Below are positions 17,838 through 35,795 of a stretch of 38,747 bases of DNA, piece by piece. Every line of letters starts with the position of its first letter. Within the stretch, counting starts at the first letter, position 1. Made by a program: the position numbers and the translations under genes. Origin of the DNA: Candidatus Thorarchaeota archaeon (lineage in GTDB: Archaea; Asgardarchaeota; Thorarchaeia; Thorarchaeales; Thorarchaeaceae); contig SDNP01000029.1 in NCBI GenBank assembly GCA_004524445.1, positions 1 through 38,747 on the forward strand, written 5' to 3'. The notes under the pieces are model-generated. The model had not been told where the DNA came from and did no database searches. It was given only the letters and a program-made list of their open reading frames with translations.

Positions 17838-17839
17838 GA

Positions 17840-18886: not shown

Positions 18887-19117
18887 CGGTGTTTCACCTA
18901 TATCCTATCCTCTAGAAAAAAGACAAGTCTTTAAGTTTCTCGTCTACAGTTTTTGAATAGAAAAAGAATCAGTCATCTAGGCCCTTAGTTAACCAGCACC
19001 GATTCTTCTTCCAATTAAGGCTACAAGTAGCCAATGTCTTGAATATCTTTTGGAATTACTGCTCAATTTGCCGGAGGTTGCACGTGTTAGTGGATAAGAA
19101 CAGATGATTAGATTTCA

Positions 19118-20242
19118 TTAGAATTCAGGAAGTTCTTCGTACCTGTGGCAGAAAATCCAATGATCATCTTCCACTTCACGATACTCAGGAACCTGTTCGA
19201 CACAGATGTTTCTCTTGTACTGGCATCTAGGATGAAAAGGACAGCCAGATGGTGGATTCGTCATATCGGGTGGACTTCCTGGAATCCCTCGAAGAATCAA
19301 ACCCTTCTCCCTGATTCTCCGTATCATTTCCATTGATGGGTTGCTCATGAGAAAGGCTCTTGTGAATGGGTGTCCAGGGTACATTAGAATGGTTTCCGCG
19401 TCTGCGAACTCCATTATGCGTCCTGCAGACATGACTGCTATTCTGTCTGCGGTTTCTGCCATGAGACCCTGGTCATTAGTGATAAGGAGCATAGTCAAGT
19501 CCAGCTTCTCACGTACCAAATTGATGGCATCCATAATTCGTCCTTGCACTCCAACATCGAGGGCTGTAGTTGGCTCATCAGCAATGAGGATTTCAGGTAC
19601 CATTATGAGCGCCATGGCAATCAACACCCGTTGGTCTTCTCCCATGCTGAATTCCTTGGGTTTCAAGGCCTTGCGGATGTCTATATCACCAATCTCTACC
19701 AGGTCCAAGACCTGGAGTACCCGCCTCAGGACCTCCCTCTCATATAGAACACTCTCATCATCGTGAGCCCATAGCGATTCAGCTGTCTGTAGTTGAATGT
19801 TAGTATATGGATTCAATGACTTCATTGTTCCTTGAGGGACATAGGTAATCTCATTTCCTCGAATTTTCCTGAACTCTTCTTCGTTGAGGGCGAGTAAGTC
19901 CTCTCCTTTATACCAGATGTGACCTTCAACTCCGGGCAGCTTCTCTCCAATGTCATCAGAAGTCTTGCCCTCTTTGCGAGCTTTCTCACGCAGTTCCCAA
20001 AGTCTCTTGTTTTCTTTGTCACCCGATGCTGAACCGAATTTTGCTGTCTTCTCAAATATCCCCAAAATCGCCAACGCTACAGAAGACTTGCCAGCGCCGG
20101 ATTCGCCGAAGAGACCTACTGATTCCCCTCTCCTGATGCCGAATGATACATCATTGACAGCGTGCACCAAACCACGTTTTGACGTATAGGCCGCCCTTAG
20201 GTTTTCTACCTTCAGAACGTATTCATCAGCATGTTCTGGCAT
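19118..20242 (-). CDS. Second orphan OppD-like ABC ATPase with degenerate signature and H-loop
   Basis: GESGAGKS, FSMGEDQR, IADEPTTALD, ITND (canonical ITHD), GCPFHPRC...C...CH. Confidence 0.92.
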   Translation of the reverse strand: MPEHADEYVLKVENLRAAYTSKRGLVHAVNDVSFGIRRGESVGLFGESGAGKSSVALAILGIFEKTAKFGSASGDKENKRLWELREKARKEGKTSDDIGEKLPGVEGHIWYKGEDLLALNEEEFRKIRGNEITYVPQGTMKSLNPYTNIQLQTAESLWAHDDESVLYEREVLRRVLQVLDLVEIGDIDIRKALKPKEFSMGEDQRVLIAMALIMVPEILIADEPTTALDVGVQGRIMDAINLVREKLDLTMLLITNDQGLMAETADRIAVMSAGRIMEFADAETILMYPGHPFTRAFLMSNPSMEMIRRIREKGLILRGIPGSPPDMTNPPSGCPFHPRCQYKRNICVEQVPEYREVEDDHWIFCHRYEELPEF

Positions 20243-20348
20243 AGAAAAGCCAATGTAGCGTTACCAAAAATACTCTCCGAAACAAGCAGTTTCAATGCAA
20301 ACATTATTGGAGAATAATATGCGCAAATTCGACATGAGATGGCTTCTA

Positions 20349-20690
20349 TTACTCGGCGTCAATCAATGCTTCACAATTGTGACATTTGCCAGACTTGCCC
20401 GTGACCCAGATGATCTTGGAGAAATCCAGTTGAATTTTGCAGTAGGGACAGGTTTTGGGGAAGCTTATGGTTCCATTATGAATATCGAATTCGTCAGGGA
20501 TAGACCGGTCTGCGGTGGCACTTGTCATGAAAGCCCTACGTGACCGCATATTCGATTTAGCATATGCATAGACAAGGTACCCTCCAATAGCTAGCAAAAT
20601 GGGAAGAATAATTCCAATCCAGATGAGAATAGAACCCAGCAAATCAAAGCTGAGCTGGAATAGATAAATGCTGAACAGAGGGAGAAACAA
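20349..20690 (-). CDS. Membrane-anchored zinc-ribbon protein
   Basis: N-terminal TM; CPYC...CHNC; GGAGGT SD before TTG. Confidence 0.75.
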   Translation of the reverse strand: MFLPLFSIYLFQLSFDLLGSILIWIGIILPILLAIGGYLVYAYAKSNMRSRRAFMTSATADRSIPDEFDIHNGTISFPKTCPYCKIQLDFSKIIWVTGKSGKCHNCEALIDAE

Positions 20691-20729
20691 GATTCTACCT
20701 CCCTCCGTTATTTTTGATGCTACTGATGC

Positions 20730-21923
20730 TCATTCCTCAATATCAATCTCTGTTCCATTAACAAAGACCCGTTCCACCCTACTATAGAACTCGAAGGGGT
20801 GCCCGGACCAAATTACTATGTCTGCGTCCTTGCCTTTCTCCAATGACCCAACTCGCTTATCCACACCCAAAATTTCAGCTGGATTGATTGTCACGCATTT
20901 CAACGCATCATCACGGCTCATACCTAGTTTGATTACGTTCATTGGAAGCAGCGGGAAGTAATTCATGGGTGTGAGTGAATCAGTTTGAAGGGCAACCTTT
21001 ACACCCGCTTTGTTCAAAATGACTGCAGTTTCAAAACCTCGTTCCCTTGTTTCGGGCTTTGAAACCCAGTACATGGTGGGGCCAATCACGGCAGGCACCT
21101 CTGACTTCGCAATGTGGTCTGCAATCTTATGACCCTCTGTGCAATGTATCAAAACTAATCTGAGATTGAATTCTTTGGCCAGTCGAATAACTGTAGCAAT
21201 ATCATCAGCACGATGGGCGTGAGCGTGTAGCGGTATTTCCCGTTTTACAACTTTGGCAATCATCTCAAGACCCAAATCTCGTTTAGGTGGTTTTGGTGGT
21301 GCCTTGCCCTCCCCCTTTGCTTCTCTTGCTTTTGAGCCGAACGCCTTCCACTCGTCCATATAGTTCTGAGCATCCGTTATTGTCTTTCGAAGCAAAGCGG
21401 CTATACCCATTCGAGTTGAGGGCATCCTGCTATTATCGCGACCATGAACGCGCTTTGGATTTTCTCCTAGTGCCACTTTCAGTCCTGATGGCGCTTGGAG
21501 AATCATGTCTTCAACGACCTTGCTGCCAACTGGCTTGATCACAAAAGCTTGCCCACCGATTACATTTCCTGAACCTGGACCTGTATTCAGTGAAGTGACT
21601 CCACCTAGTAATGCTTCACTGAGAGAGGGCTCATGAGGATTGAAACCATCAATGGCTCTCATATGAGGTGTAATTGGCTCGGTCATTTCGTTCCCGTCAC
21701 TTCCGGCCCAGCCGATTGAACCATCGAAGAGACCCTGATGTGTATGGGCATCAATGAAACCCGGAAGAATGAATTTTCCTTCCGCATCTATTATCTCAGC
21801 ATTCTTAGGGATTTTGATGTCTTTTCCGACAGATTTTATTTTTCTGTCATCAAAAACTACAGTACCACCATCGATTTGGCCATTGATAGGACACAGGATT
21901 GTGCCATTTATGATTGCCTTCAT
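20730..21923 (-). CDS. Metal-dependent amidohydrolase (imidazolonepropionase-like)
   Basis: PGFIDAHTH, KVALGENPK, HAHRADDI, IHCTEG, TINPAEILG, GSLEKGKDAD. Confidence 0.92.
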   Translation of the reverse strand: MKAIINGTILCPINGQIDGGTVVFDDRKIKSVGKDIKIPKNAEIIDAEGKFILPGFIDAHTHQGLFDGSIGWAGSDGNEMTEPITPHMRAIDGFNPHEPSLSEALLGGVTSLNTGPGSGNVIGGQAFVIKPVGSKVVEDMILQAPSGLKVALGENPKRVHGRDNSRMPSTRMGIAALLRKTITDAQNYMDEWKAFGSKAREAKGEGKAPPKPPKRDLGLEMIAKVVKREIPLHAHAHRADDIATVIRLAKEFNLRLVLIHCTEGHKIADHIAKSEVPAVIGPTMYWVSKPETRERGFETAVILNKAGVKVALQTDSLTPMNYFPLLPMNVIKLGMSRDDALKCVTINPAEILGVDKRVGSLEKGKDADIVIWSGHPFEFYSRVERVFVNGTEIDIEE

Positions 21924-22036
21924 TATCGCTCACACAAAGAGGTGATTATTCATCAGAGAAAAGTGTTCTTGTTAATCCGGCACTCTGAGTTCCGTTCAAC
22001 ACTGTATTGAAATACTTGAATATGCAAAACACACAC

Positions 22037-22873
22037 ATGCCAGACGGATGTACAATAGGCGCGCTTAACATGGATGAAAAGCGCTACCTCTTCAAGAATC
22101 GGGATTTAGTCTATCCGGACTTCAAAGACACAACCAAATTCGATGATGAAGCTTTTCTAGTGACAGGTGTGAATATTGCAGTTGGAAAGCCAACAGGTGC
22201 ATCGATTGGTATCAATAAACATGGCGTGATGATGGCTAGTTCTACAGTATTGATCTCACAGGACCCTCCTTACGATGACCTTCTCCAATTGCTCTTGAGA
22301 GAAGCAAAATCACTGAGTGAGGCAGTCAGTATCGTGAGAGATGATTTGGATAGCGGGTCCAAATACCAATGGTGCAACTTCGTGATTTCTGATTCTAAGA
22401 AAGTGGGTATTATTGAAATCGGAAATGGTGAGATGGTTACGGAGAGTGATGTTAGAATGGCTGTGAGAACCAACCATCATCTTAAGCTCCCTACCTCTAA
22501 GCTCCTAGAGTCTGCACCACCTGAAATGAGAGAAGCTGCTGGATCACTGACCACAAGTCGATACAGGCTACAAGTGGCGTTTGCAATGCTAGAGGATGCA
22601 AAAGTTCTAACGGATATCACTCAGATGCTAAGCTCACATTCTGAAGGAAGGGGCTTTGACTCAATATGCAGACATTATCATCCAAATGAAAACAGGTATC
22701 GAGGAATGACCTCGTACTCTTACATATTGGAATCTCTCGAGTCTGAGGATAGTCCAGAGTACAGAATCCACGTTGTCCGGGGAAATCCGTGCGAATCGGC
22801 ATACCAGACTCTAGAAATTGATTTTGCAGGCACGCCTGCTGAAAAGGATAGGCTTGTTTCTGGTTTCCCTTGA
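22037..22873 (+). CDS. Ntn-hydrolase (peptidase C45/C69-like)
   Basis: N-terminal GCT nucleophile, FKNRD, GINKHG, RTNH, SICRH, GNPC. Confidence 0.78.
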   Translation: MPDGCTIGALNMDEKRYLFKNRDLVYPDFKDTTKFDDEAFLVTGVNIAVGKPTGASIGINKHGVMMASSTVLISQDPPYDDLLQLLLREAKSLSEAVSIVRDDLDSGSKYQWCNFVISDSKKVGIIEIGNGEMVTESDVRMAVRTNHHLKLPTSKLLESAPPEMREAAGSLTTSRYRLQVAFAMLEDAKVLTDITQMLSSHSEGRGFDSICRHYHPNENRYRGMTSYSYILESLESEDSPEYRIHVVRGNPCESAYQTLEIDFAGTPAEKDRLVSGFP

Positions 22874-22955
22874 TCTGAAGAGCACAAAGGTATCTACAGT
22901 TGGATATATCAGATAGAAGCAATCTCCACTCTACTAGAAAAGCGGTCGATTCATT

Positions 22956-23867
22956 ATGACATCAGAAAAGCTCCGTAATGCCCTGAAAGGGGTTGCAATT
23001 ACAACAGCGACACCATTTACTAAAGACCTATCCAATATTGATTTGAATGGCTTGAAGGAGAACCTCCGATTTTTATCAAAACATGGTATCTCATTGTTTG
23101 TTCCGTGTGGAAACACAGGTGAGTACTATTCTCTGTCTGATGAAGAGTGGAAGTCCGTAGTGGAAACCACAATCGAATCCACCAACAATGATGCTTGCGT
23201 GTTGGCGGGCGCAGGAGGCTCAATCAAGACTGCTCTGAACCAGACAAAAATTGCCAGTGAGCTAGGTGCTGATGGCATTATGATTATGTATCCTCGGCAT
23301 GTATTTGCCTCCGCTGAGGGGTTACTCAATTATTGCCAGAGGATCATTGACGCTGCCAATGAAATTGGAGTTGTATTATACAAAAAAGGAAATCTCATGA
23401 CTGATGCTGTGCTGACATCTCTCACTAAGAATGAAAATCTTGTTGGAGTAAAATATGCACATGGCAGGATAGTGGACTTTGCAAAGACCGTCGAAGATCT
23501 TGGGAACAAAGTGGTGTGGTCTTGTGGCACAGCCGAGAGATTTGCACCGTTCTTTTGGCTTGCTGGGGCAGAAGGGTTCACATCCGGTCTTGGGAACTTC
23601 GCCCCCGAAATATCTCTCCAAATGTTCGAAGCACTGAAGAAGGGGGACTATTCTGGTGCAATGGAAATACAGCTAAAGATAACGCCCTTGGAATACCTCC
23701 GTGAAGGCAGAGAAAAGGCAAACAATGTTCCAGTTGTCAAGGCTGCATTAGATTATATTGGGCTTCATGGTGGTAAATGCCGCCCACCAATCCATCCGCT
23801 TAGAATCAAGGAAAAGACAGAGGTCTTGGATGTGGTTTCATCCTGGAATTTGTCAAGACTCCGGTAG
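22956..23867 (+). CDS. DapA/DHDPS-family class I aldolase/dehydratase, substrate unknown
   Basis: TPF, PCGNTGEY, VLY, Schiff-base Lys in GVKYA. Confidence 0.88.
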   Translation: MTSEKLRNALKGVAITTATPFTKDLSNIDLNGLKENLRFLSKHGISLFVPCGNTGEYYSLSDEEWKSVVETTIESTNNDACVLAGAGGSIKTALNQTKIASELGADGIMIMYPRHVFASAEGLLNYCQRIIDAANEIGVVLYKKGNLMTDAVLTSLTKNENLVGVKYAHGRIVDFAKTVEDLGNKVVWSCGTAERFAPFFWLAGAEGFTSGLGNFAPEISLQMFEALKKGDYSGAMEIQLKITPLEYLREGREKANNVPVVKAALDYIGLHGGKCRPPIHPLRIKEKTEVLDVVSSWNLSRLR

Positions 23868-24860
23868 AAGTTCATTCCTGTGCATTTCAATTAGATGAGC
23901 CGTCCAACCTGCTGATCTGGCAACCGCAAAAAGGTCCGTATTGAACCGGGGCGCAATCTCCATGGTTGCATATACTGCTGCGTTGTACAAGTCCACATTG
24001 GGATGAACTCGGATTCCCTTTTCTTCCCAAAGGAGCTCCGCTCCAACTTCAGCCACCTCTGTTATTAACTCTGGTAGCCAGTATTGATTTGTACCCTCTG
24101 TTCTCCTGTCTAGCATCTCCGCGAGAATTTTGGCACGTGGGTCAGTGGTTTGGTAAATCCTATGTCCTAGTCCATGTACTCTCTTGCCCGAGTCGATTCT
24201 CTTGCGAAGGGCCTCCTCAGTTGACTTCGATTTCTGAAGATGAAGGAGCATTTTGTATGCTTCATGACCCGCCCCATGATGGAGCGATCCGGTATGCTCT
24301 GCGAGGGCTTTGCTTAATGCTTGTACAATATTGCCATTCTCTCTAAAGCTTCTCATGAGTGCTGATAGGGACGGATTATCGGGATCATCCATATGTAGAA
24401 TTAGACAAGTCTCAAAATCCCTAAGATCACTCTCAGGAATGCCTCTGTCTGAATAGAGGGTGTACACCGACCTCGCATGAGTGTGATGCTCGTCATTTAG
24501 CAATTGATTCCCATCATTTCTATCAGCACTCGCTAGGCGGAGATAGTACGGAAGATTACTAACAAAACAATAGAGCTTTTCATCCTCTTGAAGACCCGTG
24601 AATACTCCTGTTCTGTCCATATATTTCGGAATCTGCTTTGGATGGCTTAGGGATGATTCTGTGTTGCGAATTGAAGTTCTAACTCTCAATCCTGAGAGAG
24701 ATGTCTTGAAGCTTTCGAGTTCTGATTCTTCTGGAAGAGATCCATTAACTAGTAGAAAAAAACAGCTTTCAAACGATTGCTCTTTCGCAAGACTATCTAT
24801 TCTTTTTTCCCTGTAGTACAGAAGGCCTTCGTCTTGGTCGATTCTACTTATGGGACCCAT
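23853..24860 (-). CDS. Citrate synthase-family protein, atypical
   Basis: ID...GLLYYR, GSLHHGAG, GLGHRIYQTTDPRA, PNVDLY, LFAVARSAGWTAH. Confidence 0.85.
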   Translation of the reverse strand: MGPISRIDQDEGLLYYREKRIDSLAKEQSFESCFFLLVNGSLPEESELESFKTSLSGLRVRTSIRNTESSLSHPKQIPKYMDRTGVFTGLQEDEKLYCFVSNLPYYLRLASADRNDGNQLLNDEHHTHARSVYTLYSDRGIPESDLRDFETCLILHMDDPDNPSLSALMRSFRENGNIVQALSKALAEHTGSLHHGAGHEAYKMLLHLQKSKSTEEALRKRIDSGKRVHGLGHRIYQTTDPRAKILAEMLDRRTEGTNQYWLPELITEVAEVGAELLWEEKGIRVHPNVDLYNAAVYATMEIAPRFNTDLFAVARSAGWTAHLIEMHRNELLPES

Positions 24861-24907
24861 GGAGGTATAAGCACTATTTCGCCATATCTCTTTTATTACT
24901 CGAGACG

Positions 24908-25594
24908 CTAATCTCTTTCTCCCAATCTAGGCCTTGCTTTCAAAAGAATGGCTATTCCGAGAATCGGGAATAGCAGCTCCAGATAGCCTCCTTGGTACAA
25001 CAAAAGCAAAAACATGCCAACAAGCAATAATAAAGCAGTCTTTGCTATAGTCTCACCCGCCCTCCACCCAGGCGGCTTTTTGTAGACCAGAAGCCACAAT
25101 AATGGGATGGCGAATATGAGTGAGGAAAACCCTGCAGCGTAGCTCAAATTTACCATCTTTGTTACCGAAATAGATACTATCGCCTCTGTTCTTGAATGAT
25201 ATTCTAATCGGACATCGAATTCACCAGTCGTATAAATGGCATTAATGTGGCCGTCTCGATAACCTATTTGGAAAGTTATGTCATTCTCTCCTTCGATTCT
25301 TACCACTTGACTGTAAATCCATTTTCTTAGAGAACGATAGTATATGCCTCCCGCCACCCGGCGATAGACCCAGTCCCCGCCCTCATGGAACTCAACCGAT
25401 ACAAAGGCAAATTCGCTGTGAAGCAGACTGAACTTGAAGATTCGGTACTCATCTTGATTACTCCCTGCAATATATGTTGTTTCATGAACCGATTCTGGTA
25501 TGCCAACTGGAATAGGATTGACTAGAAGCCCTCCCCCAACCAAAAACAATATGGCTAGAATCTTGGGGTAATAATTTGTTTTCATCCCTTTCAA
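24908..25594 (-). CDS. Membrane protein, hypothetical
   Basis: N-terminal TM, beta-rich middle region, C-terminal TMs. Confidence 0.7.
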   Translation of the reverse strand: MKGMKTNYYPKILAILFLVGGGLLVNPIPVGIPESVHETTYIAGSNQDEYRIFKFSLLHSEFAFVSVEFHEGGDWVYRRVAGGIYYRSLRKWIYSQVVRIEGENDITFQIGYRDGHINAIYTTGEFDVRLEYHSRTEAIVSISVTKMVNLSYAAGFSSLIFAIPLLWLLVYKKPPGWRAGETIAKTALLLLVGMFLLLLYQGGYLELLFPILGIAILLKARPRLGERD

Positions 25595-25771
25595 GCCCTC
25601 TCATCAATGTTGCTTAACAATGTGATAGTATTGATTTCAGTTTATGCATCTTTATTATGAATAACATTCTCCTTTTCCTGGATAGGGTAGTACATTTCTG
25701 TCATTTTTCACAAGACATATAGGGATGAGGTTTTTTCTTTCAAGTAACACGTAGAAGGGTGTTTCAGTCTA

Positions 25772-26773
25772 ATGACAATACGTTTGGCTATCAATGGCTT
25801 TGGACGGATAGGAAGAAGATTTGCAGCTTTTGCCCTAAAGTCAAAGCATTTTGAAATAGTGGCAATTAATGACTTGGCGGATGCAAAAACTCTCACGCAT
25901 CTGTTCAAGTATGATACAGTCTTTGGAAAGCATGATGGAACTGTCAAGTATGAGGATGGGCATATTTTTATTGATGGACATAAAATCAAGATGCTTTCAG
26001 AGCGAAATCCGGCAGAATTGCCGTGGAAGGAGATGAAGGTCGATATAGTAATCGAATCGACAGGTATATTCAGGAAGAAAGAGGATGCGGAGAAACACCT
26101 TGAGGCTGGAGCAAAGAAGGTGTTAATCAGTGCTCCCGGGAAGAGTCCAATGCGGACGATTGTTCTTGGAGTCAATGAAGATGAGTATGATCCAAAGAAT
26201 GACCATGTGCTATCCAACGCTTCATGCACAACCAATTGCCTTACACCTGTTGCTAAAGTTCTGCACGAGGAGTTCGGTATTAAGAAGGGACTAATGACGA
26301 CTACCCATGCTGTGACCACAAGTCAAAGTATTCTTGACCTCCCACACAAGGATCTTCGAAGAGCAAGAGCTGCAGGATGGAATATCATTCCGACAACAAC
26401 TGGTGCTGCCAAAGCAACAGCTTTGGTGTACCCAGAGATGGAGGGCAGGCTTGACGCTATGGCGATGAGAGTACCTGTGATGGATGGATCGGTGGTTGAC
26501 TTAACAGCGGTTCTTGAAAAGGAGGTCACGTTGGATGAGGTCAATGAGGCATTCATGAAGGCTGCCGAGGGAGAGCTAAAGGGCATACTTGAATATGCGG
26601 ACGAGCCCATTGTTTCATCTGATATTATTGGCAATACACATTCAAGCATCTACGATTCATTGGCGACAATTGTCATGGGTGATATGGTAAAGGTGCTTTC
26701 ATGGTATGACAATGAAGCTGGCTATGCGATGCGAATGGTTAATCTCGCAGAGTATGTAGCCAAGAAGCTTTGA
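25772..26773 (+). CDS. gap: Glyceraldehyde-3-phosphate dehydrogenase, bacterial type I
   Basis: INGFGRIGR, SNASCTTNCL, NIIPTTTGAAKA, SWYDNE. Confidence 0.97.
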   Translation: MTIRLAINGFGRIGRRFAAFALKSKHFEIVAINDLADAKTLTHLFKYDTVFGKHDGTVKYEDGHIFIDGHKIKMLSERNPAELPWKEMKVDIVIESTGIFRKKEDAEKHLEAGAKKVLISAPGKSPMRTIVLGVNEDEYDPKNDHVLSNASCTTNCLTPVAKVLHEEFGIKKGLMTTTHAVTTSQSILDLPHKDLRRARAAGWNIIPTTTGAAKATALVYPEMEGRLDAMAMRVPVMDGSVVDLTAVLEKEVTLDEVNEAFMKAAEGELKGILEYADEPIVSSDIIGNTHSSIYDSLATIVMGDMVKVLSWYDNEAGYAMRMVNLAEYVAKKL

Positions 26774-26801
26774 AACAGAACAGAATCTCGCATTTTGTGG
26801 C

Positions 26802-26840
26802 GAAGAGGGTACAAAATCTACCCTCTTCTATTCCCCTTTT
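26802..26840. terminator. Hairpin between the convergent gap and heliorhodopsin genes
   Basis: Perfect 10-bp stem GAAGAGGGTA-caaaatc-TACCCTCTTC followed by a pyrimidine run. Confidence 0.7.
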
Positions 26841-26910
26841 CATGTGATTACTTTTTTCATTCTTGCGGAATGCCATGACTGTTTCTTAAGTGAAGTAGGG
26901 TCATTGCTCG

Positions 26911-27735
26911 CTAAAAAGGTGCAAATATGCCCACAAACACAATCCATGCTAGCGCTGTCTTAGCAATGAAACTCAATACGATATACATTCGTTCTCCATA
27001 GAGATAATCACTCCACTTGCTTACACCTTTGTACTGAAGAAGCATATTGAGTGCGAAGATGTTAAACAAAATGAAATAGATGAATATGATCATATACACG
27101 AAAGTTGGAGGTTCCAAACCAGAAGTTTGGATTGCATTATAGAAGTACGAATATAACACAATCCAAGGAACGAAACCGGAAATACATCCAAAAAGAAAGG
27201 GAGTCCAATTTGTTTTCTCTGTGTGTTGATTCAGGACTTCCATGAGGTATCCGAACATTATCATTGTTGCGTTCAGAACTGTGATCATAACCAGTGACCA
27301 AAAGTCCACTATTCCCGTCAGGAATGTGATGAGGAATATCATTACTGAGCTGGATACAGAATATTCGTACCACCTGTACGGGTTCATTCCCTTCTGAAGA
27401 TTGGTGATGTACCTGCTATTCAAAGGGAATGCAATCAGAAAGTGTGCCAATGAAGACATCAGAGGAAATGATGCAAGAATGACCCCAATATTTGTTACAG
27501 TGTACAATACGGTAGGCGCCGGACCAACCTCAATTATGAAGGGCTCTGTGCTTATCACATTGAAATCGATATAGAATGTATAAAGGTCAGCCTCCCATTC
27601 CAAGGTTAGACCTAGAATTAGCATCAGGACACCCATTATTAGATGTAGTGCTCCAGCAGCTATGTTGAACTTTTTCAAGTATGACGCAGTGATATTTGAT
27701 TTTGAGAAGACATCTCCTTCGGTACTCTCAGTCAT
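26911..27735 (-). CDS. Heliorhodopsin
   Basis: FNIAAGALHL (TM1 His), SSLAHF (TM2 His), NPYRWYEYSVSSSVM (counterion Glu), YGERMYIVLSFIAKTALAW (retinal Lys in SxxxK); 7 TM. Confidence 0.95.
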   Translation of the reverse strand: MTESTEGDVFSKSNITASYLKKFNIAAGALHLIMGVLMLILGLTLEWEADLYTFYIDFNVISTEPFIIEVGPAPTVLYTVTNIGVILASFPLMSSLAHFLIAFPLNSRYITNLQKGMNPYRWYEYSVSSSVMIFLITFLTGIVDFWSLVMITVLNATMIMFGYLMEVLNQHTEKTNWTPFLFGCISGFVPWIVLYSYFYNAIQTSGLEPPTFVYMIIFIYFILFNIFALNMLLQYKGVSKWSDYLYGERMYIVLSFIAKTALAWIVFVGIFAPF

Positions 27736-27879
27736 AGTAACCGTAAAACATAGCTTATGCATGATATTAAAGGCTTCGAATCACATTTTTTCTGTAATAA
27801 GCTTCTTCCTCATGAACGTGGCTGGAGCAAAAGAGTTTCAAGTCACGGACTGGCGATTGCACTAGGTGAGAAGCTAGCT

Positions 27880-28032
27880 ATGAGCAATCATTCCCAGCAT
27901 CTATGTGAGTATTCACGCCATCATGGTGTGGAAGAAATGCGAGAGCGCGTTAAGAATCCAAAGTGGATTTGTGAGGTCTGCGGCAGAGCAGCTAACAAGG
28001 AAGAATTCCTTTGCCGTCCTGTAAAGATGTAA
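27880..28032 (+). CDS. 50-aa Cys/His-rich putative metal-binding protein
   Basis: MSNHSQHLC...PKWICEVCGRAANKEEFLCRP; GGTGA SD upstream. Confidence 0.8.
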   Translation: MSNHSQHLCEYSRHHGVEEMRERVKNPKWICEVCGRAANKEEFLCRPVKM

Positions 28033-28130
28033 GCAAAAGCATTCCTAAAAGAATTCGAAGTCAATCCTTCCGTCCGTCATCTGATAGGAGCATTTTTCAT
28101 CTGCTCTACGCTTCCTTATGACTGATTCAT

Positions 28131-29480
28131 ATGTCTGAGAAGGTTTTTTCGCATATTGATGATCACATTGACGATGCCATAGATGATTTGGCTGAGTTCT
28201 GTTCAATTCCTTCTGTTGCTACAAAGGGAGAGAATATGCTAGACGCTGCCAATTTGGTGAAATCATGGCTTGAGTCCCTCGGACTTGAAACAGCTCTCCA
28301 CGAAACCTCAGGTTGGCCAGTTGTGACAGGCGAAATGGATGTGGGTGCAAAGCGCACACTTCTCTTCTACAATCATTATGACGTTCAGCCCGCTGAACCC
28401 TTTGACCTCTGGAAATCTCCTCCATTTGAACTCAGTCGCAGAAATGGGCGGCTCTATGCTAGAGGTGTAGCTGACAATAAGGGCGATATTGTTACACGCA
28501 TTTGGGCTTTGAAGGCATTGATCGAATCCGATGTTGAGATACCTGTTAATATTAAATTCGTCATTGAGGGGGAGGAGGAGATTGGAAGTCCGCACCTTCA
28601 TGAGTTTGTTAGAAAGAATGAAGATTTCATCAAGGCTGATGGTGGCATATGGGAGTTTGGCGGTTCTGGAATCGATGATAGACAAGAAGCATGGCTTGGC
28701 TTGAAGGGTCTCCTCTATGTTCAGCTCGAAGTAAAGAAGCTGAAAATGGATTCACATTCTGCAAATGCATGCGTTTTGCCGTCTGCTCCTTACAGACTAG
28801 TTTGGGCTCTGAATTCGTTGAAGAATGAAGACGGAAAGATACTGATAAAGGGCTTCTATGATGATGTAAACACACTTTCCAACGCTGAATTGGAGATAAT
28901 CAGAAACATAGAACTGTATGAGGATGATGTAAAGGAGTACTATGAAATTGACCAGTTCGTTAACGGTTTGGAAGGTCACGAACTTCAGATCGAATTTTAT
29001 AATGGGCCAACCTGCAACATATGTGGTATAGGAAGCGGTTGGCAAGGCGAAGGATCAAAGACGGTCTTGCCCGCGGAAGCTATGGTGAAGGTTGATTTTC
29101 GATTGGTGGAATCCATGGATCCCAACGACATCCTTTCTAAGCTTCAGAACCACTTCGATTCGGAAGGATTCTCAGACATCGAAATTGCCTGGCACGATGG
29201 ATATCCTGCGGCAAAGACGCCTGTAGACCATCCATTTGTGGAGGTCGTTAATACTGCAAATAAGAGAGTATTCGGTCATGACATCACGATACACCCCACT
29301 AACCCTGGTTCAGGCCCCCTCTACTTATTCAAAGACCACGTTCCTATGGTTTCTATTGGCTGTTCAGATTTCTATTCAAGGGCACACTCACCTAATGAAA
29401 CAATCAAAATAGAGAACTTTAGCAAGAGCATCAAACGAATCATTGTTTTGATTGAAGAGATGACCGCTTCTTTTGATTGA
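28131..29480 (+). CDS. M20 family metallopeptidase (dipeptidase/ArgE-DapE-like)
   Basis: YNHYDVQP, ARGVADNKG, EGEEEIGS, HSPNE. Confidence 0.94.
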   Translation: MSEKVFSHIDDHIDDAIDDLAEFCSIPSVATKGENMLDAANLVKSWLESLGLETALHETSGWPVVTGEMDVGAKRTLLFYNHYDVQPAEPFDLWKSPPFELSRRNGRLYARGVADNKGDIVTRIWALKALIESDVEIPVNIKFVIEGEEEIGSPHLHEFVRKNEDFIKADGGIWEFGGSGIDDRQEAWLGLKGLLYVQLEVKKLKMDSHSANACVLPSAPYRLVWALNSLKNEDGKILIKGFYDDVNTLSNAELEIIRNIELYEDDVKEYYEIDQFVNGLEGHELQIEFYNGPTCNICGIGSGWQGEGSKTVLPAEAMVKVDFRLVESMDPNDILSKLQNHFDSEGFSDIEIAWHDGYPAAKTPVDHPFVEVVNTANKRVFGHDITIHPTNPGSGPLYLFKDHVPMVSIGCSDFYSRAHSPNETIKIENFSKSIKRIIVLIEEMTASFD

Positions 29481-29539
29481 TGGACCGCAAGTTTTCTGTT
29501 TGAACTATAGTAATAGGCGAGTCAAGTTAGTATGATACT

Positions 29540-29586
29540 CACCCCGTCATGAAAACCCATCCCGTAAGGATGGTGGATAAACTCAC
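29540..29586 (+). mobile_element. Probable IS200/IS605-family right-end relic, no transposase
   Basis: GAAAACCCATCCCGTAAGGATGGTGGATAAACTCAC: subterminal hairpin CCATCC/GGATGG followed ~10 nt later by TCAC. Confidence 0.5.
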
Positions 29587-29750
29587 AAAAAAAAGGTATG
29601 TATCAACCAATACAACATTGGCATGCGCTTATTGCTTCATGGGGGTAAAAGAATGTGTTTTATCTATCCATACCTTCACTCTCGGATTTGCTTGCATGAA
29701 CGCGTTATGGAATTTTTCGGAATAAGCATAATACATTTACTCGACAACAA

Positions 29751-31307
29751 TTATGGCAGAGGCGGCCTCAATTTCAATCCTTTCTCCCATTCCACTTCAA
29801 AACTGTACGATAGAATAGTTTCCTCATTTGGATGGGCTTCCAAATTCCATTCCAAAACCCCCATTTCTTGCTTTTCAGGATGGGGTTCAGCCTGTTTAAG
29901 TTCCACATTAACCTTCTCTGATGAGCTATGGGGAATTCTATCGACTACTCTAATCGGTACATCCTTCTTCGCATACGACTGAATCTTTAGTTCATATTTG
30001 TATTCACGACGGGTCTTTCCTCTCGTTAGACCTGCCTTCTCGGTTTCCTTTGTCTTGAGTAGTTTTTCGCACTTAACGTCATACGAAACTCTGGTTCCAA
30101 TCCCAATCTTTTCATCTGGTGCAACAATATCCATTGCGGTTTCCCCAATGAAATCGCCATCTGCGTAAATCCTTGCCTTACCAGGCAAAAGCATTGAATC
30201 GCCAATTGTGACTTCATTTTGAGCTACTGGTTCTGCCATGGCATATGCATTCCAGAAATACATGAGGCGAGATGAAAGGTCTTCTCTCGTCAGCGTTACG
30301 GGGCTTGGATCTGCATCCGAGAGCACAGTCACCCTTCCAGGAATATCATACTGGACAATACCTCCTAGCGTCTGAGAGGCTTCTGCATATGCTGGCTTCA
30401 ATCTATCAGTACTAACTGATACCTCCATGGGCGAGATTTCTCTTGCTATGCCAAATCCTGCCTTATCTGCTCTGGATGGTCTAGGTTCATATGCCCTCGA
30501 AGCAGCATCGACGTAGTACGGTTGAGGTCGAATAGCCTCTACAGGCCGCATTGATGCTGTTGAAACGGTTAGATCGACATCAATCCAGTCTTCTAGACTG
30601 TGATTGACAACATTGGCAATTCTTTTGACTGCAGCCCTTTCATCAGTGAGGTCGATATCATATGCGGGCTCCCACCTGGCAAATTTATGCAGATAGGAAA
30701 TCTCCAAGTCTACAGTAGTTTCTTTGATGGCCTCAAGTGCAATTCGGACTATCGTTTTTGTTTCAGTTTTTCTTGCTGCTCCTACCCTATTGATATTAGC
30801 ATTTACCGTCCTGATTTTAGCTTCAACATCTTCCAACTCGTAGCCGAGGTCTCGTATCTTCTTTTTAGCTTCGCCAAGTGCTTCTGTGATAAAGATGTGG
30901 CTTTTGTCCAATATCTCAAGAGGTGTATCTTTAAGCGGATACCATTTGCCAAATTCACTAGAGAAGTGCTCCAGGATGGATGTAAGATACTTTACCCTCT
31001 CTTGTTGAGTCGATATCCTATCCACAATGCCCTTCTTTCCTTCTTCAAGTATATCCAACTCATTCCTCAGGTTTCCTATTTCATTTTCAGGCCCGAATGT
31101 CTTGGTCACTCGCTTAGTATCGACGTTTTTCAATTTGGCATGTCCCTTCCCCTTGGCGCGGAAACTATCTGTTTCTGCATACCTGGAGATATCCCCCATC
31201 CTAACGATATGCTGTCCAGGTTTCACATCAATCTTGCCAACGCGCGTGACCTTGGCTCCATCTCGGAATACAACCACTCTGTCGATTTTGGTATCACATT
31301 CAATCAT
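29751..31307 (-). CDS. DUF4140/DUF4139 (MuiA-like) protein, copy 2
   Basis: IDRVVVFRDGAKVTR, coiled coil, WEPAYD, EDWIDVDLTVSTA, DRIPHS. Confidence 0.9.
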   Translation of the reverse strand: MIECDTKIDRVVVFRDGAKVTRVGKIDVKPGQHIVRMGDISRYAETDSFRAKGKGHAKLKNVDTKRVTKTFGPENEIGNLRNELDILEEGKKGIVDRISTQQERVKYLTSILEHFSSEFGKWYPLKDTPLEILDKSHIFITEALGEAKKKIRDLGYELEDVEAKIRTVNANINRVGAARKTETKTIVRIALEAIKETTVDLEISYLHKFARWEPAYDIDLTDERAAVKRIANVVNHSLEDWIDVDLTVSTASMRPVEAIRPQPYYVDAASRAYEPRPSRADKAGFGIAREISPMEVSVSTDRLKPAYAEASQTLGGIVQYDIPGRVTVLSDADPSPVTLTREDLSSRLMYFWNAYAMAEPVAQNEVTIGDSMLLPGKARIYADGDFIGETAMDIVAPDEKIGIGTRVSYDVKCEKLLKTKETEKAGLTRGKTRREYKYELKIQSYAKKDVPIRVVDRIPHSSSEKVNVELKQAEPHPEKQEMGVLEWNLEAHPNEETILSYSFEVEWEKGLKLRPPLP

Positions 31308-31319
31308 TCCAATCCACTC

Positions 31320-32903
31320 CTAGGGTAGCGGCGGGACAATGACCGTTTCCTTGTCCCAAGTCACTTTGTATGCGTATTCGATTGATTTCGAGGTTCCCTC
31401 TTTTATTTTTAATTCCCATTCAAGAATGCCAAGCTGTGACTTCTTTGGTTGGGGCACTGTTTCCAGAACTTCAATTTCTATCGATGGGTTGAGACTATGA
31501 GGAACTCTATCCTTTACAGCAACCTCGATTCTCTTCTTTTCAAAATTCTCAAGGATCAAAGTATATCCGTAATTCTGTTGGATCTTTCCTCTGGTTAATC
31601 CTGATTTTTGAATATCCCTCTTTACCAGTTTCTTTTCACCCTTGACTTTGTTTGCGATTCTCGTGCCAATCTTAAACGATTCATGTGGAGCAATTTGTGG
31701 GATTGATGTTTCGCCTACCAGATCATTCCCTTCATAGACTTTCACTTCGCCTGGTAGAATTAACTGGGATCCGTTTGTTACTTCATTCTGCGCGACAACA
31801 TATACCATCTCATCAGCGTACCAGTAGTATATTGTTGAGGAATCTAGCTCCTCCTCTGATAAAGCAATAGGATGTTCCTCGTCATCAGGTGGAATTGAAG
31901 TAGTATCTGGCACGTCATAAACTGAGATTCCCGATACTGTTTCAGATGATTCGGCAAATGTTTCCTCTAATTCTGGTGGCGGACTTGGAGGTGGAGCTGT
32001 ACCTGATTTCTCCAAGGCTTCTGGTTCAGCAGCGGCAGCTGGCGCCATTTTCATACTTCTTTTTGCCCTCTCCTTTCTAGCCCTAGCATCTTCAGGGTCA
32101 TATGCTGTTATGTACAGAGGGGTACCCTCTATGGCATGTGCTGGAGTAGCTGTCGCTGTGGAAACTCTTAGGCGTACATCCTTCCAATCCTCCCCAGTAC
32201 AATTGCGTATGAGCGCCATTCTTCTTATCCTGCATGAGTTTCGACCAACTTTGACATCGTAACTTGGACTCCAGCTTGCGCCATCCGTCTGGTAAGTGAG
32301 TTCCAGCTGAATGGTTCCTTTTTCTTCAGCCTCCAAGTCTATATCCACATCATAGAACACTTCTGTTTTTCTTTTGCTGTCGAGCTTCCCAATTTCTGAT
32401 TCTAGTATCTCAATTTCCGTTTGAATCTCCTGTCGCTTTTTTCTCAGCTCCCTCAGCTTCTTTCGAGTCTTATTCTTCACCTCTGAGCTCTTAGAGTCGA
32501 TATTTTTCAGCTGCGATATGTCCGTTTCATTCGCAGCCAAAATGGTACCGTAGTTTTCTGAAAAATCGTCCAATAACTGTTGCATGCTGGAAATTCTCAG
32601 ATTTTCAATTTCTATCTCGTCATCCAATGCCAGCAGCCTTCGCCGTAATTCCTTCAGCTTTGAATAAATGTGATCAATATCCTCCTTAGGTTCAAAGAGC
32701 CGTTCCTTTCTTTGTACGTCAAGGGAGGCAATGTGTGCCTTTCCGTGTCCATCAACACGGAAACTATCCTCAATTGCTGAGGAAGAGATTCCTCCTAATC
32801 TAACTTTCAGATCTCCAGGTTCTACTTCCACTGAACCTATTCTAGTCACTCTGGCTCCATTTCTGAATACTGCAACTCTGGATATTGACGCCTCTATTTC
32901 CAT
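31320..32903 (-). CDS. DUF4140/DUF4139 (MuiA-like) protein, copy 1
   Basis: ISRVAVFRNGARVTR, coiled coil, WSPSYD, TGEDWKDVRLRVSTA, DRVPHS. Confidence 0.9.
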   Translation of the reverse strand: MEIEASISRVAVFRNGARVTRIGSVEVEPGDLKVRLGGISSSAIEDSFRVDGHGKAHIASLDVQRKERLFEPKEDIDHIYSKLKELRRRLLALDDEIEIENLRISSMQQLLDDFSENYGTILAANETDISQLKNIDSKSSEVKNKTRKKLRELRKKRQEIQTEIEILESEIGKLDSKRKTEVFYDVDIDLEAEEKGTIQLELTYQTDGASWSPSYDVKVGRNSCRIRRMALIRNCTGEDWKDVRLRVSTATATPAHAIEGTPLYITAYDPEDARARKERAKRSMKMAPAAAAEPEALEKSGTAPPPSPPPELEETFAESSETVSGISVYDVPDTTSIPPDDEEHPIALSEEELDSSTIYYWYADEMVYVVAQNEVTNGSQLILPGEVKVYEGNDLVGETSIPQIAPHESFKIGTRIANKVKGEKKLVKRDIQKSGLTRGKIQQNYGYTLILENFEKKRIEVAVKDRVPHSLNPSIEIEVLETVPQPKKSQLGILEWELKIKEGTSKSIEYAYKVTWDKETVIVPPLP

Positions 32904-33112
32904 TATGACAAATCTCCAATCTGGAGTGGACAATACCATCATTTATTCTTTGAGTAGAATCATTGAATTTGCCAAATCGATTCAAAATGACATTCTTCCG
33001 TGTGTGACCTTGTGACAACTAAACTTTTCAGCATGCGAAACCTTTGAATTGATATATCTTCAACCAAAATTCACAGCAAAATGCACGCATCTTAAGGCAG
33101 TGACACCCAAAA

Positions 33113-33499
33113 ATGACCACCCGCATCTTCATTGTTGATGACGAACCAAGAGTAGCAGAAATTCTGGAAACCTATCTCCAAAAAGAAATGCCGGATATTG
33201 AAGTCATCTGTGCTTCAGATGGAAAGGATGCTGTGGAGAAAATGGCCATGATGCTGGCAGATGATGTAACTCCTGACATGACTCTGATGGATCTCAGAAT
33301 GCCTATCATGGACGGTATTGAATCAAGCAAGCAGTTATCTGAAATGGGTGTTGAAAATATCCATATTCTCACCGCATATGTAGACCCAGAGCTTAAGGAG
33401 ATAGCTATCACGGTGGGGGCTGAGGGAGTAATCGATAAATCCGAGGGTTATGCCAAGATTGCCGAGCGTCTTGCTGCAATGGTGAATGAAAAGAAATAA
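33113..33499 (+). CDS. Stand-alone receiver-domain response regulator
   Basis: IVDDE, LMDLRMPIMDG (phospho-Asp), ILTA, IDKS. Confidence 0.93.
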   Translation: MTTRIFIVDDEPRVAEILETYLQKEMPDIEVICASDGKDAVEKMAMMLADDVTPDMTLMDLRMPIMDGIESSKQLSEMGVENIHILTAYVDPELKEIAITVGAEGVIDKSEGYAKIAERLAAMVNEKK

Positions 33500-33605
33500 T
33501 CAAGTGCCATTCTGCACTGTTCCTTTGATTGATCATTTCTGTGATGTACAGCTGTCTTAATCACTTGGAAAATGATTGTGAATCCGTCTAATCTACTATA
33601 TTCAC

Positions 33606-33651
33606 TGAAAAAGGAAAATATGAAATGCGAAACCCGGGACGGTGCCCGGGT
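33606..33651 (-). terminator. Terminator downstream of rubredoxin
   Basis: ACCCGGG-N6-CCCGGGT hairpin (33632-33651) followed by a T-rich tract on the minus strand. Confidence 0.65.
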
Positions 33652-33677
33652 AAGTATTGCGAATTAGCAGGATTCTA

Positions 33678-33842
33678 CTAATCAGAGATTTTCTCAAAGT
33701 CGTCCTTGCTTGCTCCACACATTGGACAAACCCAATCATCGGGTATATCTTCGAACTTGGTTCCTGGTTCCACTCCGCTGTCTGGATCTCCCTTCTCTTC
33801 GTCGTAAATCCATCCACAGACCAAACATTCCCATTTTGCCAT
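33678..33842 (-). CDS. Rubredoxin (54 aa; below the ORF-track size cutoff)
   Basis: Manual translation [54 protein letters not shown]. Confidence 0.97.
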
Positions 33843-33974
33843 TTGTTGATTCACCGTTTTCTTTGCTAATGCTTTTTTCTAATACAATAGTCATTCCATC
33901 CGAATACACATGGCGGATAAAAGCCTTCGGATGGGCCGAAAGTCAAGTCAATCCAGTCTGACCTGTTTGCATCT

Positions 33975-35285
33975 TCACTCACTGTCAGCTTCGTTTTCGA
34001 GCTCCGAGGTTTCTCCACTTTCTGATTCTGAAACTGATTCTTCTTCCTCCAGTAGCGGTGGCTCCTCTCCATCAGCCTCATCCATGTCGGGGAATTCTTC
34101 AGACATATCTTCCTCACTTGGCGGCGGTTCTTCAGGAGGGAATTCTTCCTCGGTTGACACTGCTTCTTCGGGCTTGATTTCTTCTACCTGTTCCTCCTCA
34201 CCAACAACCTCCAGCTCCTCGGGAGTTTCTGGTACTTTCTGAGCCTTTCTAACTCTGTATATGAACCGAATCTCCATCAGAAGTGCGATCAAGGGGAATA
34301 TGAGAAGCTTCACACCGTCTCCAAGACCTCCCTGTGACGCTCCCGCAAGGATACTGAATGTCACATCAACGAACATAAACCCAGAGGCTAGGAAGAATGT
34401 TAGCGTCGCAGCAGCTTCTTTTGATATCTTCAATCGCGTTTCCATATCTGCCCTGCTAGCCAGGGTCTGTCCTACGGAGCTCATAGTGTACAAAATGAAA
34501 AAGATGGTGACTCCTAGGCTGACAAGGTCAATACCTGGCTGAAATCCCTTTAGTACATTATAGGTGAAATATGCGGAATATAAGGAGATGAATATGCTCA
34601 GCAGAACAATGTTCGCAGCATGCGGCTTATTCCGCTCCCACGCTACAATTACTCCATTCAGAAAATTGAAACCCAGTGCAAGGAGCATTCCAAGTATACC
34701 GAAAAACAATGCTGATGTATATGGGGGCAGGAGTATGGGTGGGTTTACAAATAGAACAGTATAGACAAAGGCACCAATGATGACAATGTAGTTGAAAATA
34801 TTGGCAACCCCAAATAGAAATGATGTCAATTTAGATGATTCATCTACTTGAACCCCGCTAGCATAAGTCAATGATGTCCGAGCTGAGAAATAGGATTGAA
34901 AGCCAATCCATCCAACAAAAGCGATGCCTATGTATATGACACTGAATACAGGAAATGCGAACACTATGAGCACAAATAGTAGGATTCCACTGGTAATAAT
35001 CCATGGAATGAACCGAATGAGTGATTTCTTGTATGATTCTTCACTCGCCACGAATCTTTGAAACCCAGCCAATGAAACAAAGAATGTGAGCATGAAAAAT
35101 GTTGGGAAAATGCCCCAGATGAGTGATACAAGCAAGCCGAATCCCCCGAAAATTGTTCCTATTTGCTCCCATAATGTAATCAAAACGGCTCCGACGAAAA
35201 AGACAATAGTTAACCATCTTAGCCGGTTAGACTCAAAAAACATCTTCAGTCCATTTATGAACTTGGTAATCATTGGAATCTCCAT
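33975..35285 (-). CDS. Polytopic membrane protein with a long acidic, disordered C-terminal tail
   Basis: ~10 TM helices followed by ~85 aa rich in Glu/Pro/Ser; GGAGG SD. Confidence 0.85.
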   Translation of the reverse strand: MEIPMITKFINGLKMFFESNRLRWLTIVFFVGAVLITLWEQIGTIFGGFGLLVSLIWGIFPTFFMLTFFVSLAGFQRFVASEESYKKSLIRFIPWIITSGILLFVLIVFAFPVFSVIYIGIAFVGWIGFQSYFSARTSLTYASGVQVDESSKLTSFLFGVANIFNYIVIIGAFVYTVLFVNPPILLPPYTSALFFGILGMLLALGFNFLNGVIVAWERNKPHAANIVLLSIFISLYSAYFTYNVLKGFQPGIDLVSLGVTIFFILYTMSSVGQTLASRADMETRLKISKEAAATLTFFLASGFMFVDVTFSILAGASQGGLGDGVKLLIFPLIALLMEIRFIYRVRKAQKVPETPEELEVVGEEEQVEEIKPEEAVSTEEEFPPEEPPPSEEDMSEEFPDMDEADGEEPPLLEEEESVSESESGETSELENEADSE

Positions 35286-35327
35286 TAGTTTTTCCTCCTG
35301 ATAGGTGCATTTAGAATAACAGAAGTT

Positions 35328-35795
35328 CTATTTATTCTTGAGCACGTATAACATTTCTGCTTCTAAGGTATCTTTAATCTTCGGTTTTTCAATAAGTTGC
35401 GCAATACGGTTGCCAGCGTCATCGACAAACTCGAACCAAGGTATTGCCGTCACATTCCACTCTTCAATCTCGGGAGGTGAAGGCGGAATCTTCCATTGGT
35501 GATCCGGGTCAAGTGGTGCAGTCTTGATTTTGTCGAATACCCTTACCTCCATGCCAATCTGCTCTACGAGAAGCTTGATGACTGGCATTGCATTCTTACA
35601 ATCTCCACACCAAGCAGCACTGAACACAATAGTTGTGATGTTATTCATCTGGTCGCGAAGCTCTTCCACCACATTGCTGTCTAAGTCGTACTGCTCATAC
35701 ATTTCCATTACAATATCTCGATTCTTATCATCCAGTGACTCGATATAGTCATCCACAGAAATCGTTCTCTTTCTAATATCCTTCAGGTCTACCAT
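35328..35795 (-). CDS. Thioredoxin-family protein
   Basis: WCGDC active site and AIP cis-Pro loop. Confidence 0.88.
   Translation of the reverse strand: MVDLKDIRKRTISVDDYIESLDDKNRDIVMEMYEQYDLDSNVVEELRDQMNNITTIVFSAAWCGDCKNAMPVIKLLVEQIGMEVRVFDKIKTAPLDPDHQWKIPPSPPEIEEWNVTAIPWFEFVDDAGNRIAQLIEKPKIKDTLEAEMLYVLKNK

Follow-up and report, generated by a model that had tools for sequence, protein, structure and literature searches.

What would a light-absorbing membrane protein do in an archaeon whose genes point to anaerobic life in sediment? The question is raised by contig SDNP01000029.1 of a Candidatus Thorarchaeota metagenome-assembled genome (GCA_004524445.1; 2.79 Mb in 64 contigs, 90% complete, 5.4% contamination), which is contig C14 of our set. 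Its 38,747 nucleotides, which we call the window, carry a heliorhodopsin (HeR) gene on the reverse strand. What HeRs do is for the most part unsettled, and the most puzzling are those of strict anaerobes that are unable to make retinal, a problem that this locus does not solve. A light sensor without an identified output is the default reading of the field and stands as a best guess for the window protein. Taken as a whole, the best explanation, which we hold to be moderately probable, is a slow, non-pumping photoreceptor that uses exogenous retinal and modulates a partner encoded elsewhere.

Judging from its sequence and its modeled fold, the protein is almost certainly a genuine, intact member of the heliorhodopsin family. 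A profile search, which the initial annotation of this DNA had proposed as a check, matched far above the curated cut-offs both with the Pfam family Heliorhodopsin, PF18761 (E 3.2e-88, 295.6 bits against a cut-off of 26.7, profile positions 1-241 of 242), and with the NCBIfam equivalog NF038020, "heliorhodopsin HeR" (331.7 bits against a cut-off of 100). The best protein matches are Thorarchaeota proteins, and among solved structures phmmer placed TaHeR (6IS6, E 4e-54) and 48C12 (6SU3, E 7e-49) nearest. An AlphaFold2 model, built from 24 homologues with a mean pLDDT of 71.8 (moderate confidence), contains seven long helices (residues 17-44, 81-102, 122-140, 145-172, 178-205, 211-236 and 244-271) and a short extra helix in the BC loop. 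Together with the intact reading frame, it bears out the earlier description of a complete seven-transmembrane protein, as well as that of a long loop between the first two helices. This AB loop has 36 residues, is modeled as a β-hairpin (residues 50-79, with strands 50-63 and 66-79) and exceeds that of 48C12 by about 9 residues, a trait of the clade that is not peculiar to the window gene. In a Foldseek search with the model, the top 10 matches were all heliorhodopsin structures (E 4e-12 to 8e-9, TM-score about 0.65-0.73), led by TaHeR (E 4e-12, TM-score 0.68/0.73), and type-1 rhodopsins appeared only at E > 0.01.

The residues that define the retinal pocket lead to the same answer. All motifs that had been named from the sequence are present, namely H31 in TM1, H98 in TM2, R121-W-Y-E124-Y-S and S255-F-I-A-K259. 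H31, S94, H98, R121, E124, S255 and K259 are invariant across 24 aligned homologues of the clade, and they align with H23, S76, H80, R104, E107, S237 and K241 of 48C12, respectively. The two positions required by Chazan et al., the Schiff-base lysine of helix G and the arginine of helix C, are represented by K259 and R121; E124 stands for the single glutamate counterion that the family has in helix C, and H31 and H98 for its pair of histidines, one in helix A and one in helix B. In 48C12, Glu107 has been named as the counterion (PMC10434121). The host, placed in the Thorarchaeota, is of the kind expected for a heliorhodopsin, a monoderm or archaeon and thus an organism without an outer membrane.

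The gene model could be fixed by comparison. The longest open reading frame of the region (26911-27762, reverse strand, 283 aa) is intact, but the 1255 homologues that we found are mostly 274 aa long, and their starts agree with the methionine at 27735. Because of this length and of the position of a TATA-like box (Table 1), we take 27735 as the true start, so the limits given in the initial annotation represent the right gene model. An AT-rich octamer lies at an equal distance from the ATG in four other Thorarchaeota HeR loci, where a conserved CGATTAYT stands between this octamer and the ATG, directly before the latter. The position of the box predicts a leaderless or nearly leaderless transcript, and the nine extra codons of the longer frame would then fall 5' of the expected transcription start. 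A sigma-70 promoter scan at HeR gave background level only, and that model is irrelevant for an archaeon. The GC content at third codon positions (GC3) of the gene, 0.458, is similar to that of neighboring genes. As far as can be read from the sequence, HeR is a stand-alone, monocistronic cassette with its own promoter-like element.

We propose the following mechanism, whose chances, argued largely by analogy, we put a little above even. HeR would be a seven-helix membrane protein with its N terminus in the cytoplasm, in which all-trans-retinal is bound to Lys259, Glu124 acts as the single counterion, and His31 and His98 line the Schiff-base cavity. Retinal would come from the environment and enter by way of the lateral fenestration, which is conserved and for which the TaHeR structure paper is said to describe a role in retinal capture. 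By analogy with TaHeR and 48C12, the protein would be a slow-cycling, non-pumping photoreceptor, and in its light-activated form it may modulate a partner protein encoded elsewhere. The predicted orientation is consistent with the charge distribution, as six Lys/Arg residues occur in the N terminus and the BC, DE and FG loops and none in the AB, CD and EF loops and the C terminus, which fits the inverted, N-terminus-inside topology of the family.

The fenestration is also where ion transport comes into question. For 48C12 and TaHeR, its residues have been described as opposed aromatics, small residues and a glycine, plus Asn207 (Kornilov et al., bioRxiv 10.1101/2025.11.27.691015). All six residues of the fenestration, which is also the putative carotenoid site, are kept in the window protein: F180, C184, G187, F224, N225 and A228 correspond by alignment to 48C12 positions 162, 166, 169, 206, 207 and 210, respectively. 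Light-driven or light-gated ion transport, as shown for some viral heliorhodopsins (V2HeR3), has some footing in that the family includes proton-transporting members (PMC10434121), but the transport-active subfamily lacks the fenestration motif (bioRxiv 10.1101/2025.11.27.691015), which the window protein keeps. Moreover, its nearest companions by sequence and fold are TaHeR and 48C12, and both are reported not to transport ions. Of all explanations weighed here, transport is the least probable, and we regard it as highly unlikely.

A photoreceptor needs its chromophore, and the supply of retinal is the next step of the problem. As had been noted from the sequence, profile searches found no retinal-synthesis gene in the window. 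The further check of the genome for crt and blh genes gave a divided result: crt genes are present in a cluster on contig C5, and blh, lycopene cyclase and RPE65-type oxygenase were not found. Specifically, the last two steps to retinal had no match over cut-off in the 90% complete genome (PF18916, TIGR03462, PF15461, TIGR03753 and PF03055). This holds for the heterodimeric-type lycopene cyclase (PF18916, TIGR03462) and for Brp/Blh (PF15461, TIGR03753), whose searches had no positive control among 14 control genomes. RPE65-type oxygenase, photolyase and SOUL likewise gave no genome match over cut-off, and neither did type-1 rhodopsin (Bac_rhodopsin), the single HeR being the one rhodopsin found. 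Two weaker candidates were rejected. A BCD/Blh match of 19 bits on contig C30 looks like a phytol/dolichol-kinase-type membrane protein and lies beside an isopentenyl phosphate kinase-like gene, and matches of about 30 bits to PF05834 (Lycopene_cycl) are generic FAD-dependent reductases, flavoproteins of 400-440 aa, with a model that also matches methanogen and E. coli controls.

The carotenoid cluster (locus L086:6318-15462) contains a CrtI-family desaturase (crtI_fam, 579 bits), a CrtB-like phytoene/squalene synthase (SQS_PSY, 245.5 bits), a second desaturase matching the CrtID equivalog "bifunctional phytoene desaturase/3,4-desaturase" (670 bits), and a LyeJ-like UbiA prenyltransferase of the PRK12875 type (279 bits); a CruF-like protein (PF04240, 155 bits; TIGR03460, 126 bits, under its cut-off) is encoded 3 kb further on. 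The phytoene synthase and phytoene desaturase of an endogenous retinal pathway are therefore at hand, and the organism probably makes lycopene and derivatives, as predicted from these genes. The set is the one used by haloarchaea (Haloarcula, Halobacterium) to make bacterioruberin-type C50 carotenoids from lycopene, and its occurrence in supposed dark-sediment anaerobes was unexpected. In gene order, the UbiA prenyltransferase is followed by an aldehyde:ferredoxin oxidoreductase gene and the CruF-like gene. We consider the cluster native, because the GC content and tetranucleotide profile of contig C5 are typical of the host genome and 15 of the 24 genomes of the family, among them the same-genus genome G001, carry CruF-like genes. 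Since neither a lycopene cyclase nor a β-carotene cleavage enzyme was found, retinal is most likely exogenous. The lack of retinal steps in a genome with HeR as its one rhodopsin is the usual situation, as blh seldom accompanies HeR unless another rhodopsin is present (Chazan et al.).

The cluster lends itself to two other uses of pigment. A carotenoid antenna has been proposed for the whole HeR family (Kornilov et al., bioRxiv 10.1101/2025.11.27.691015), and a carotenoid at the lateral fenestration could serve the window protein as a second chromophore for light harvesting, with an energy-related role in place of pure sensing. All six positions of the site are kept and the same genome holds the CrtB, CrtI-family, CrtID, LyeJ-like and CruF-like genes, but the proposal rests on structural comparison and docking and not on measured energy transfer, and the characterized close relatives do not pump. 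The carotenoids predicted here are acyclic, of the C50 type and without an ionone ring, in which they differ from the known antenna xanthophylls. Furthermore, among relatives the presence of HeR does not follow that of the carotenoid cluster: G001 has the cluster and no HeR, and another relative, G022, has HeR without a CruF-like or CrtI-family match over cut-off (a third, G015, has weak CrtI-like matches only). Thus, we think a light-harvesting pair of chromophores unlikely. Even less likely, indeed very doubtful, is that the thorarchaeote supplies HeR from its own isoprenoid pigments and that cassettes of promoter plus gene then carry the capacity to sense light from one strictly anaerobic archaeon of the sediment to another. 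This could take two forms, with retinal made from CrtB/CrtI lycopene by novel cyclase and cleavage enzymes, or with the organism's own C50-type carotenoid docked at the fenestration; for an actinobacterium, a different way of making retinal has been put forward (cited by Chazan et al.).

How the gene came to its place could be seen by comparison with G001, which is 94% complete. G001 is collinear with window positions 18537-36044 at about 81-85% identity, and HeR was not found in it. Collinearity by blastn breaks at window positions 26841 and 27826, in agreement with pairwise alignment, and the borders of the cassette carry an uncertainty of about 15 bp. The gene for glyceraldehyde-3-phosphate dehydrogenase (GAPDH) adjoins a small 49-aa gene, without HeR in between, not only in G001 but also in G014 and G013, which represent two further genera. 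An insertion in the lineage of the window is more parsimonious and is therefore favored over three separate losses. HeR is accordingly a recent single-gene insertion between the GAPDH gene and the small Cys-rich gene, made after the split from the sequenced congener. Among the 40 relatives examined, HeR was found in 2 of the 24 same-family genomes. When the cassette borders were searched for direct or inverted repeats of the transposon kind, only short, chance-level matches were returned. The perfect hairpin found where GAPDH and HeR converge is not part of the inserted segment and is conserved in the G001 alignment. The two congeneric genomes, collinear except for the HeR cassette of about 970 bp, thus form a clean natural presence/absence pair. 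A second indel against G001, window 24419-25706 (about 1.3 kb) against L102:9574-10155 (about 0.6 kb), holds the gene for a 228-aa signal-peptide-like protein (24908-25594, reverse strand) with no family match.

So recent and patchy a gene might be a passenger, either functionless or with a function in the dark, that has no use as a photoreceptor in a sediment archaeon. The single-gene insertion, the presence in only two family genomes, the retinal pathway that was not found and the missing adjoining partner gene would all fit this view. Against it, the frame is intact, GC3 is like that of the neighbors, and the promoter-like element is kept. The retinal-pocket residues are all invariant in a clade that reaches down to 61% identity and includes many strict anaerobes and a cultured Methanobacterium, and HeR transcripts have been reported for Bathyarchaeota in mangrove sediment. 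We therefore judge a passenger gene to be decidedly unlikely.

If HeR acts as a regulator, a partner might be expected nearby. HeR has no co-directional operon partner, being flanked by the convergent GAPDH gene and the divergent small gene. When the 24 window proteins were compared by tblastn with 80 related HeR loci, within 8 kb of HeR, none recurred, apart from trivial ABC and PmbA paralogues; GAPDH and the M20 dipeptidase-like gene were absent from these loci. The initial annotation had read the protein as a possible oxidative-stress sensor, but this was argued from genes 6-12 kb away, none of which recurs near HeR in the 80 loci, and the reading is not supported on these grounds. Because HeR is a recent single-gene insertion, the window neighbors are uninformative on its function, and guesses from neighborhood are uninformative for the Thorarchaeota HeR clade as a whole.

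The wider clade does have recurrent neighbors: SOUL haem-binding genes in 27 of the 80 loci, Pyridox_ox_2 genes in 16, DUF1722/2-thiouracil desulfurase genes in 7, and, additionally, α/β hydrolase and major facilitator superfamily (MFS) genes. SOUL and pyridoxamine-phosphate-oxidase families next to HeR have already been reported (Chazan et al.), as have MFS transporters and α/β hydrolases. Fusion genes of DUF1722 and 2-thiouracil desulfurase adjoin HeR in L016, L018, L021, L022, L024 and L029, which are Bathyarchaeia loci and one Asgard locus. In E. coli, the photolyase operon includes a DUF1722 gene, ybgA, and this family may be another light-linked HeR neighbor.

Such neighbors bear on the hypothesis of Chazan et al. 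that HeR is a light-dependent enzyme or membrane-repair factor for photo-oxidative damage or lipid remodeling, a role close to that of an oxidative-stress sensor. SOUL (27/80), Pyridox_ox_2 (16/80) and DUF1722/2-thiouracil desulfurase (7/80) genes stand beside HeR in Bathyarchaeia, Methanobacteriaceae and Asgard loci, and the window itself has a rubredoxin, a thioredoxin-fold gene and a DinB/MST-like gene. However, none of the SOUL, Pyridox_ox_2 or DUF1722 neighbors occurs beside Thorarchaeota HeRs, the host genome has no SOUL match, and the window redox genes are 6-12 kb away and older than the insertion, being collinear in the HeR-less G001. Chazan et al. also saw the same families beside proton pumps. 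In this archaeon a repair role seems to us just as unlikely as a passenger gene. To our knowledge, catalytic activity has been shown for no HeR.

The only activities demonstrated for prokaryotic HeRs consist of binding partners in a light-dependent manner and modulating them, the partners being glutamine synthetase, photolyase and an ABC multidrug exporter. These published partners show that a regulator mode exists in the family, and by analogy a non-pumping photoreceptor with a partner encoded elsewhere would be in keeping with it. The regulatory HeRs belong to the same family as the window protein, but their genes lie in operons with the partner (glutamine synthetase, photolyase, the OmrDE ABC exporter), whereas the window HeR is monocistronic and has no such neighbor, and the genome has no photolyase match. 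The Opp/Dpp-type ABC genes of the window are at least 6 kb away and unrelated to multidrug exporters such as OmrDE.

Several points weigh against a photoreceptor of this kind. Such archaea live mostly in dark, anoxic sediment, where neither light nor a supply of exogenous retinal can be taken for granted. The Thorarchaeota HeR loci have no neighbor in common, which leaves analogy as the sole argument for the regulator mode. Additionally, the structural model is of moderate confidence only, and the absence of blh and crtY is not proven, given the completeness and contamination of the genome and the missing positive control for Blh.

The relationships of the protein were examined in a quick, unrooted maximum-likelihood tree, in which L087 was left out of the reading (branch 4.09, probably a wrong frame). 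The seven HeRs of the Thorarchaeota type fall into a single clade (SH-aLRT 99), from which the window protein branches first. In this unrooted tree the group that surrounds the clade is mainly one of Bathyarchaeia HeRs, and a branch with support 99 parts the clade from the other Asgard HeRs (Promethearchaeota, Hodarchaeota). The topology suggests, within the limits of an unrooted tree, a transfer of HeR between Bathyarchaeia and Thorarchaeota. The sister of the Thorarchaeota clade is a 66% identical HeR from L009 (DATLAV010000141.1); this contig is labeled "Patescibacteria group bacterium" but probably represents misbinned archaeal DNA. The HeRs of Methanobacteriaceae, 16 in number, group together in a single clade, and most of their genes have a SOUL gene upstream in divergent orientation. 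A 57% identical HeR is encoded by Methanobacterium ferruginis NBRC 105197 (L057, NZ_AP027738.1, 8001-8819), with an Abhydrolase_5 gene 128 bp downstream, and this cultured strict anaerobe would be a tractable organism for the study of such HeRs.

Compared with characterized proteins, the window HeR is an ordinary further member of a known family, and Thorarchaeota HeRs have already been annotated. TaHeR, from Thermoplasmatales archaeon SG8-52-1 (PDB 6IS6, 7CLJ, 7U55), is the best solved match, with about 42% identity in Foldseek. The two archaeal proteins share the Lys, Glu, Arg and His residues, the "FA(L/I)NM" motif of helix F and the fenestration residues. They differ in that the window protein has an N terminus about 10 residues longer and a helix E/F loop 5 residues longer, with a gapped alignment in helix A and the AB loop, and in that its host is an Asgard archaeon and that of TaHeR belongs to Thermoplasmatota. 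Identity to 48C12, the founding bacterial heliorhodopsin (PDB 6SU3, 6UH3), is about 40%, and Q213 of 48C12 is Met231 in the window protein, as in the archaeal type. The HeRs of Thorarchaeota, Bathyarchaeia, Methanobacterium and other Asgard archaea are 61-79% identical to it and of equal length (274 aa), and several are already named "heliorhodopsin HeR" by NCBI. HeRs of Bathyarchaeota, with transcripts, and of Asgard archaea including the cultured MK-D1 have been published (PMC7110647, PMC7997004). The protein P0001, encoded on a 550-kb JGI contig, is 97% identical; P0001, P0051 and P0102 are named "sulfite exporter TauE/SafE" by JGI, an apparent automatic misannotation. The window gene differs from all annotated archaeal HeR genes in its genomic site, and from those of Bathyarchaeia and Methanobacteriaceae also in lacking their common SOUL or PNPOx neighbors. 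New here, and modest in scope, are the structure of the cassette and its indel, the patchiness of its distribution, the failure of inference from the neighborhood, and a carotenoid cluster without the last two retinal steps.

Table 1. Features of the HeR locus and its surroundings, in window coordinates
Feature	Position	Strand	Remarks
HeR coding sequence	26911..27735	-	274 codons plus stop; PF18761, NF038020 and TaHeR/48C12 matches
TATA-like box TTTAATAT	27764..27771	-	36 to 29 nt 5' of the ATG at 27735
HeR segment (gene, promoter, 3' end), ~970 bp	26854..27825		~200 unrelated bases at the collinear G001 site
Lys259 codon (AAG), predicted retinal Schiff-base lysine, helix G	26959..26961	-	Invariant; aligns with 48C12 K241
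Glu124 codon, predicted counterion, RWYEYS motif of helix C	27364..27366	-	Invariant; aligns with 48C12 E107
His98 codon, helix B	27442..27444	-	Invariant; aligns with 48C12 H80
His31 codon, helix A	27643..27645	-	Invariant; aligns with 48C12 H23
Perfect 10-bp hairpin where GAPDH and HeR converge	26802..26828		Inverted repeat I8
Type I GAPDH gene, convergent with HeR	25772..26773	+	Gp_dh_N/C; TIGR01534, 434 bits
Small Cys/His-rich gene (49 aa), divergent from HeR	27883..28032	+	No Pfam/NCBIfam match
M20 family dipeptidase-like gene, upstream neighbor	28131..29480	+	Peptidase_M20 and M20_dimer (Pfam)
Rubredoxin gene	33678..33842	-	Real context gene

The genes around HeR have features of their own. 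The GAPDH is of the bacterial/eukaryotic type I (TIGR01534, 434 bits) and not of the archaeal type II (31.6 bits), and its position is conserved across several genera of the host family. The 49-aa protein, with the pattern HLCEY...HH...CEVCG...C, is probably a small zinc-binding protein; its gene is found in 8 of 24 same-family genomes at 60-94% identity, reaching 94% in the HeR-less G001, usually between the M20 peptidase and GAPDH genes, and is independent of HeR.

The anaerobe-like archaeal context described in the initial annotation was confirmed, as this Thorarchaeota genome carries Rnf-like, DUF362/ferredoxin, rubredoxin and aldehyde:ferredoxin oxidoreductase genes, and the rubredoxin, RnfC-like and DUF362 (with 4Fe-4S domains) genes that it had named are real. 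The other window genes encode parts of Opp/Dpp-type ABC transporters, a DUF362 protein with 4Fe-4S domains, a DinB/MST-like protein, an amidohydrolase, a DHDPS-family protein, citrate synthase, a thioredoxin-fold protein and PmbA/TldD. Two tandem DUF4140 plus DUF4139 paralogues of 518 and 540 aa lie at 29751-32942 (reverse strand), and beyond them come a divergent single-domain response regulator gene (33113-33499) and then the rubredoxin gene. An RnfC-like and RnfD-like pair at 16512-18886 (reverse strand) stands without other Rnf subunits nearby, amid Opp/Dpp-type ATPase genes and the DUF362/ferredoxin gene.

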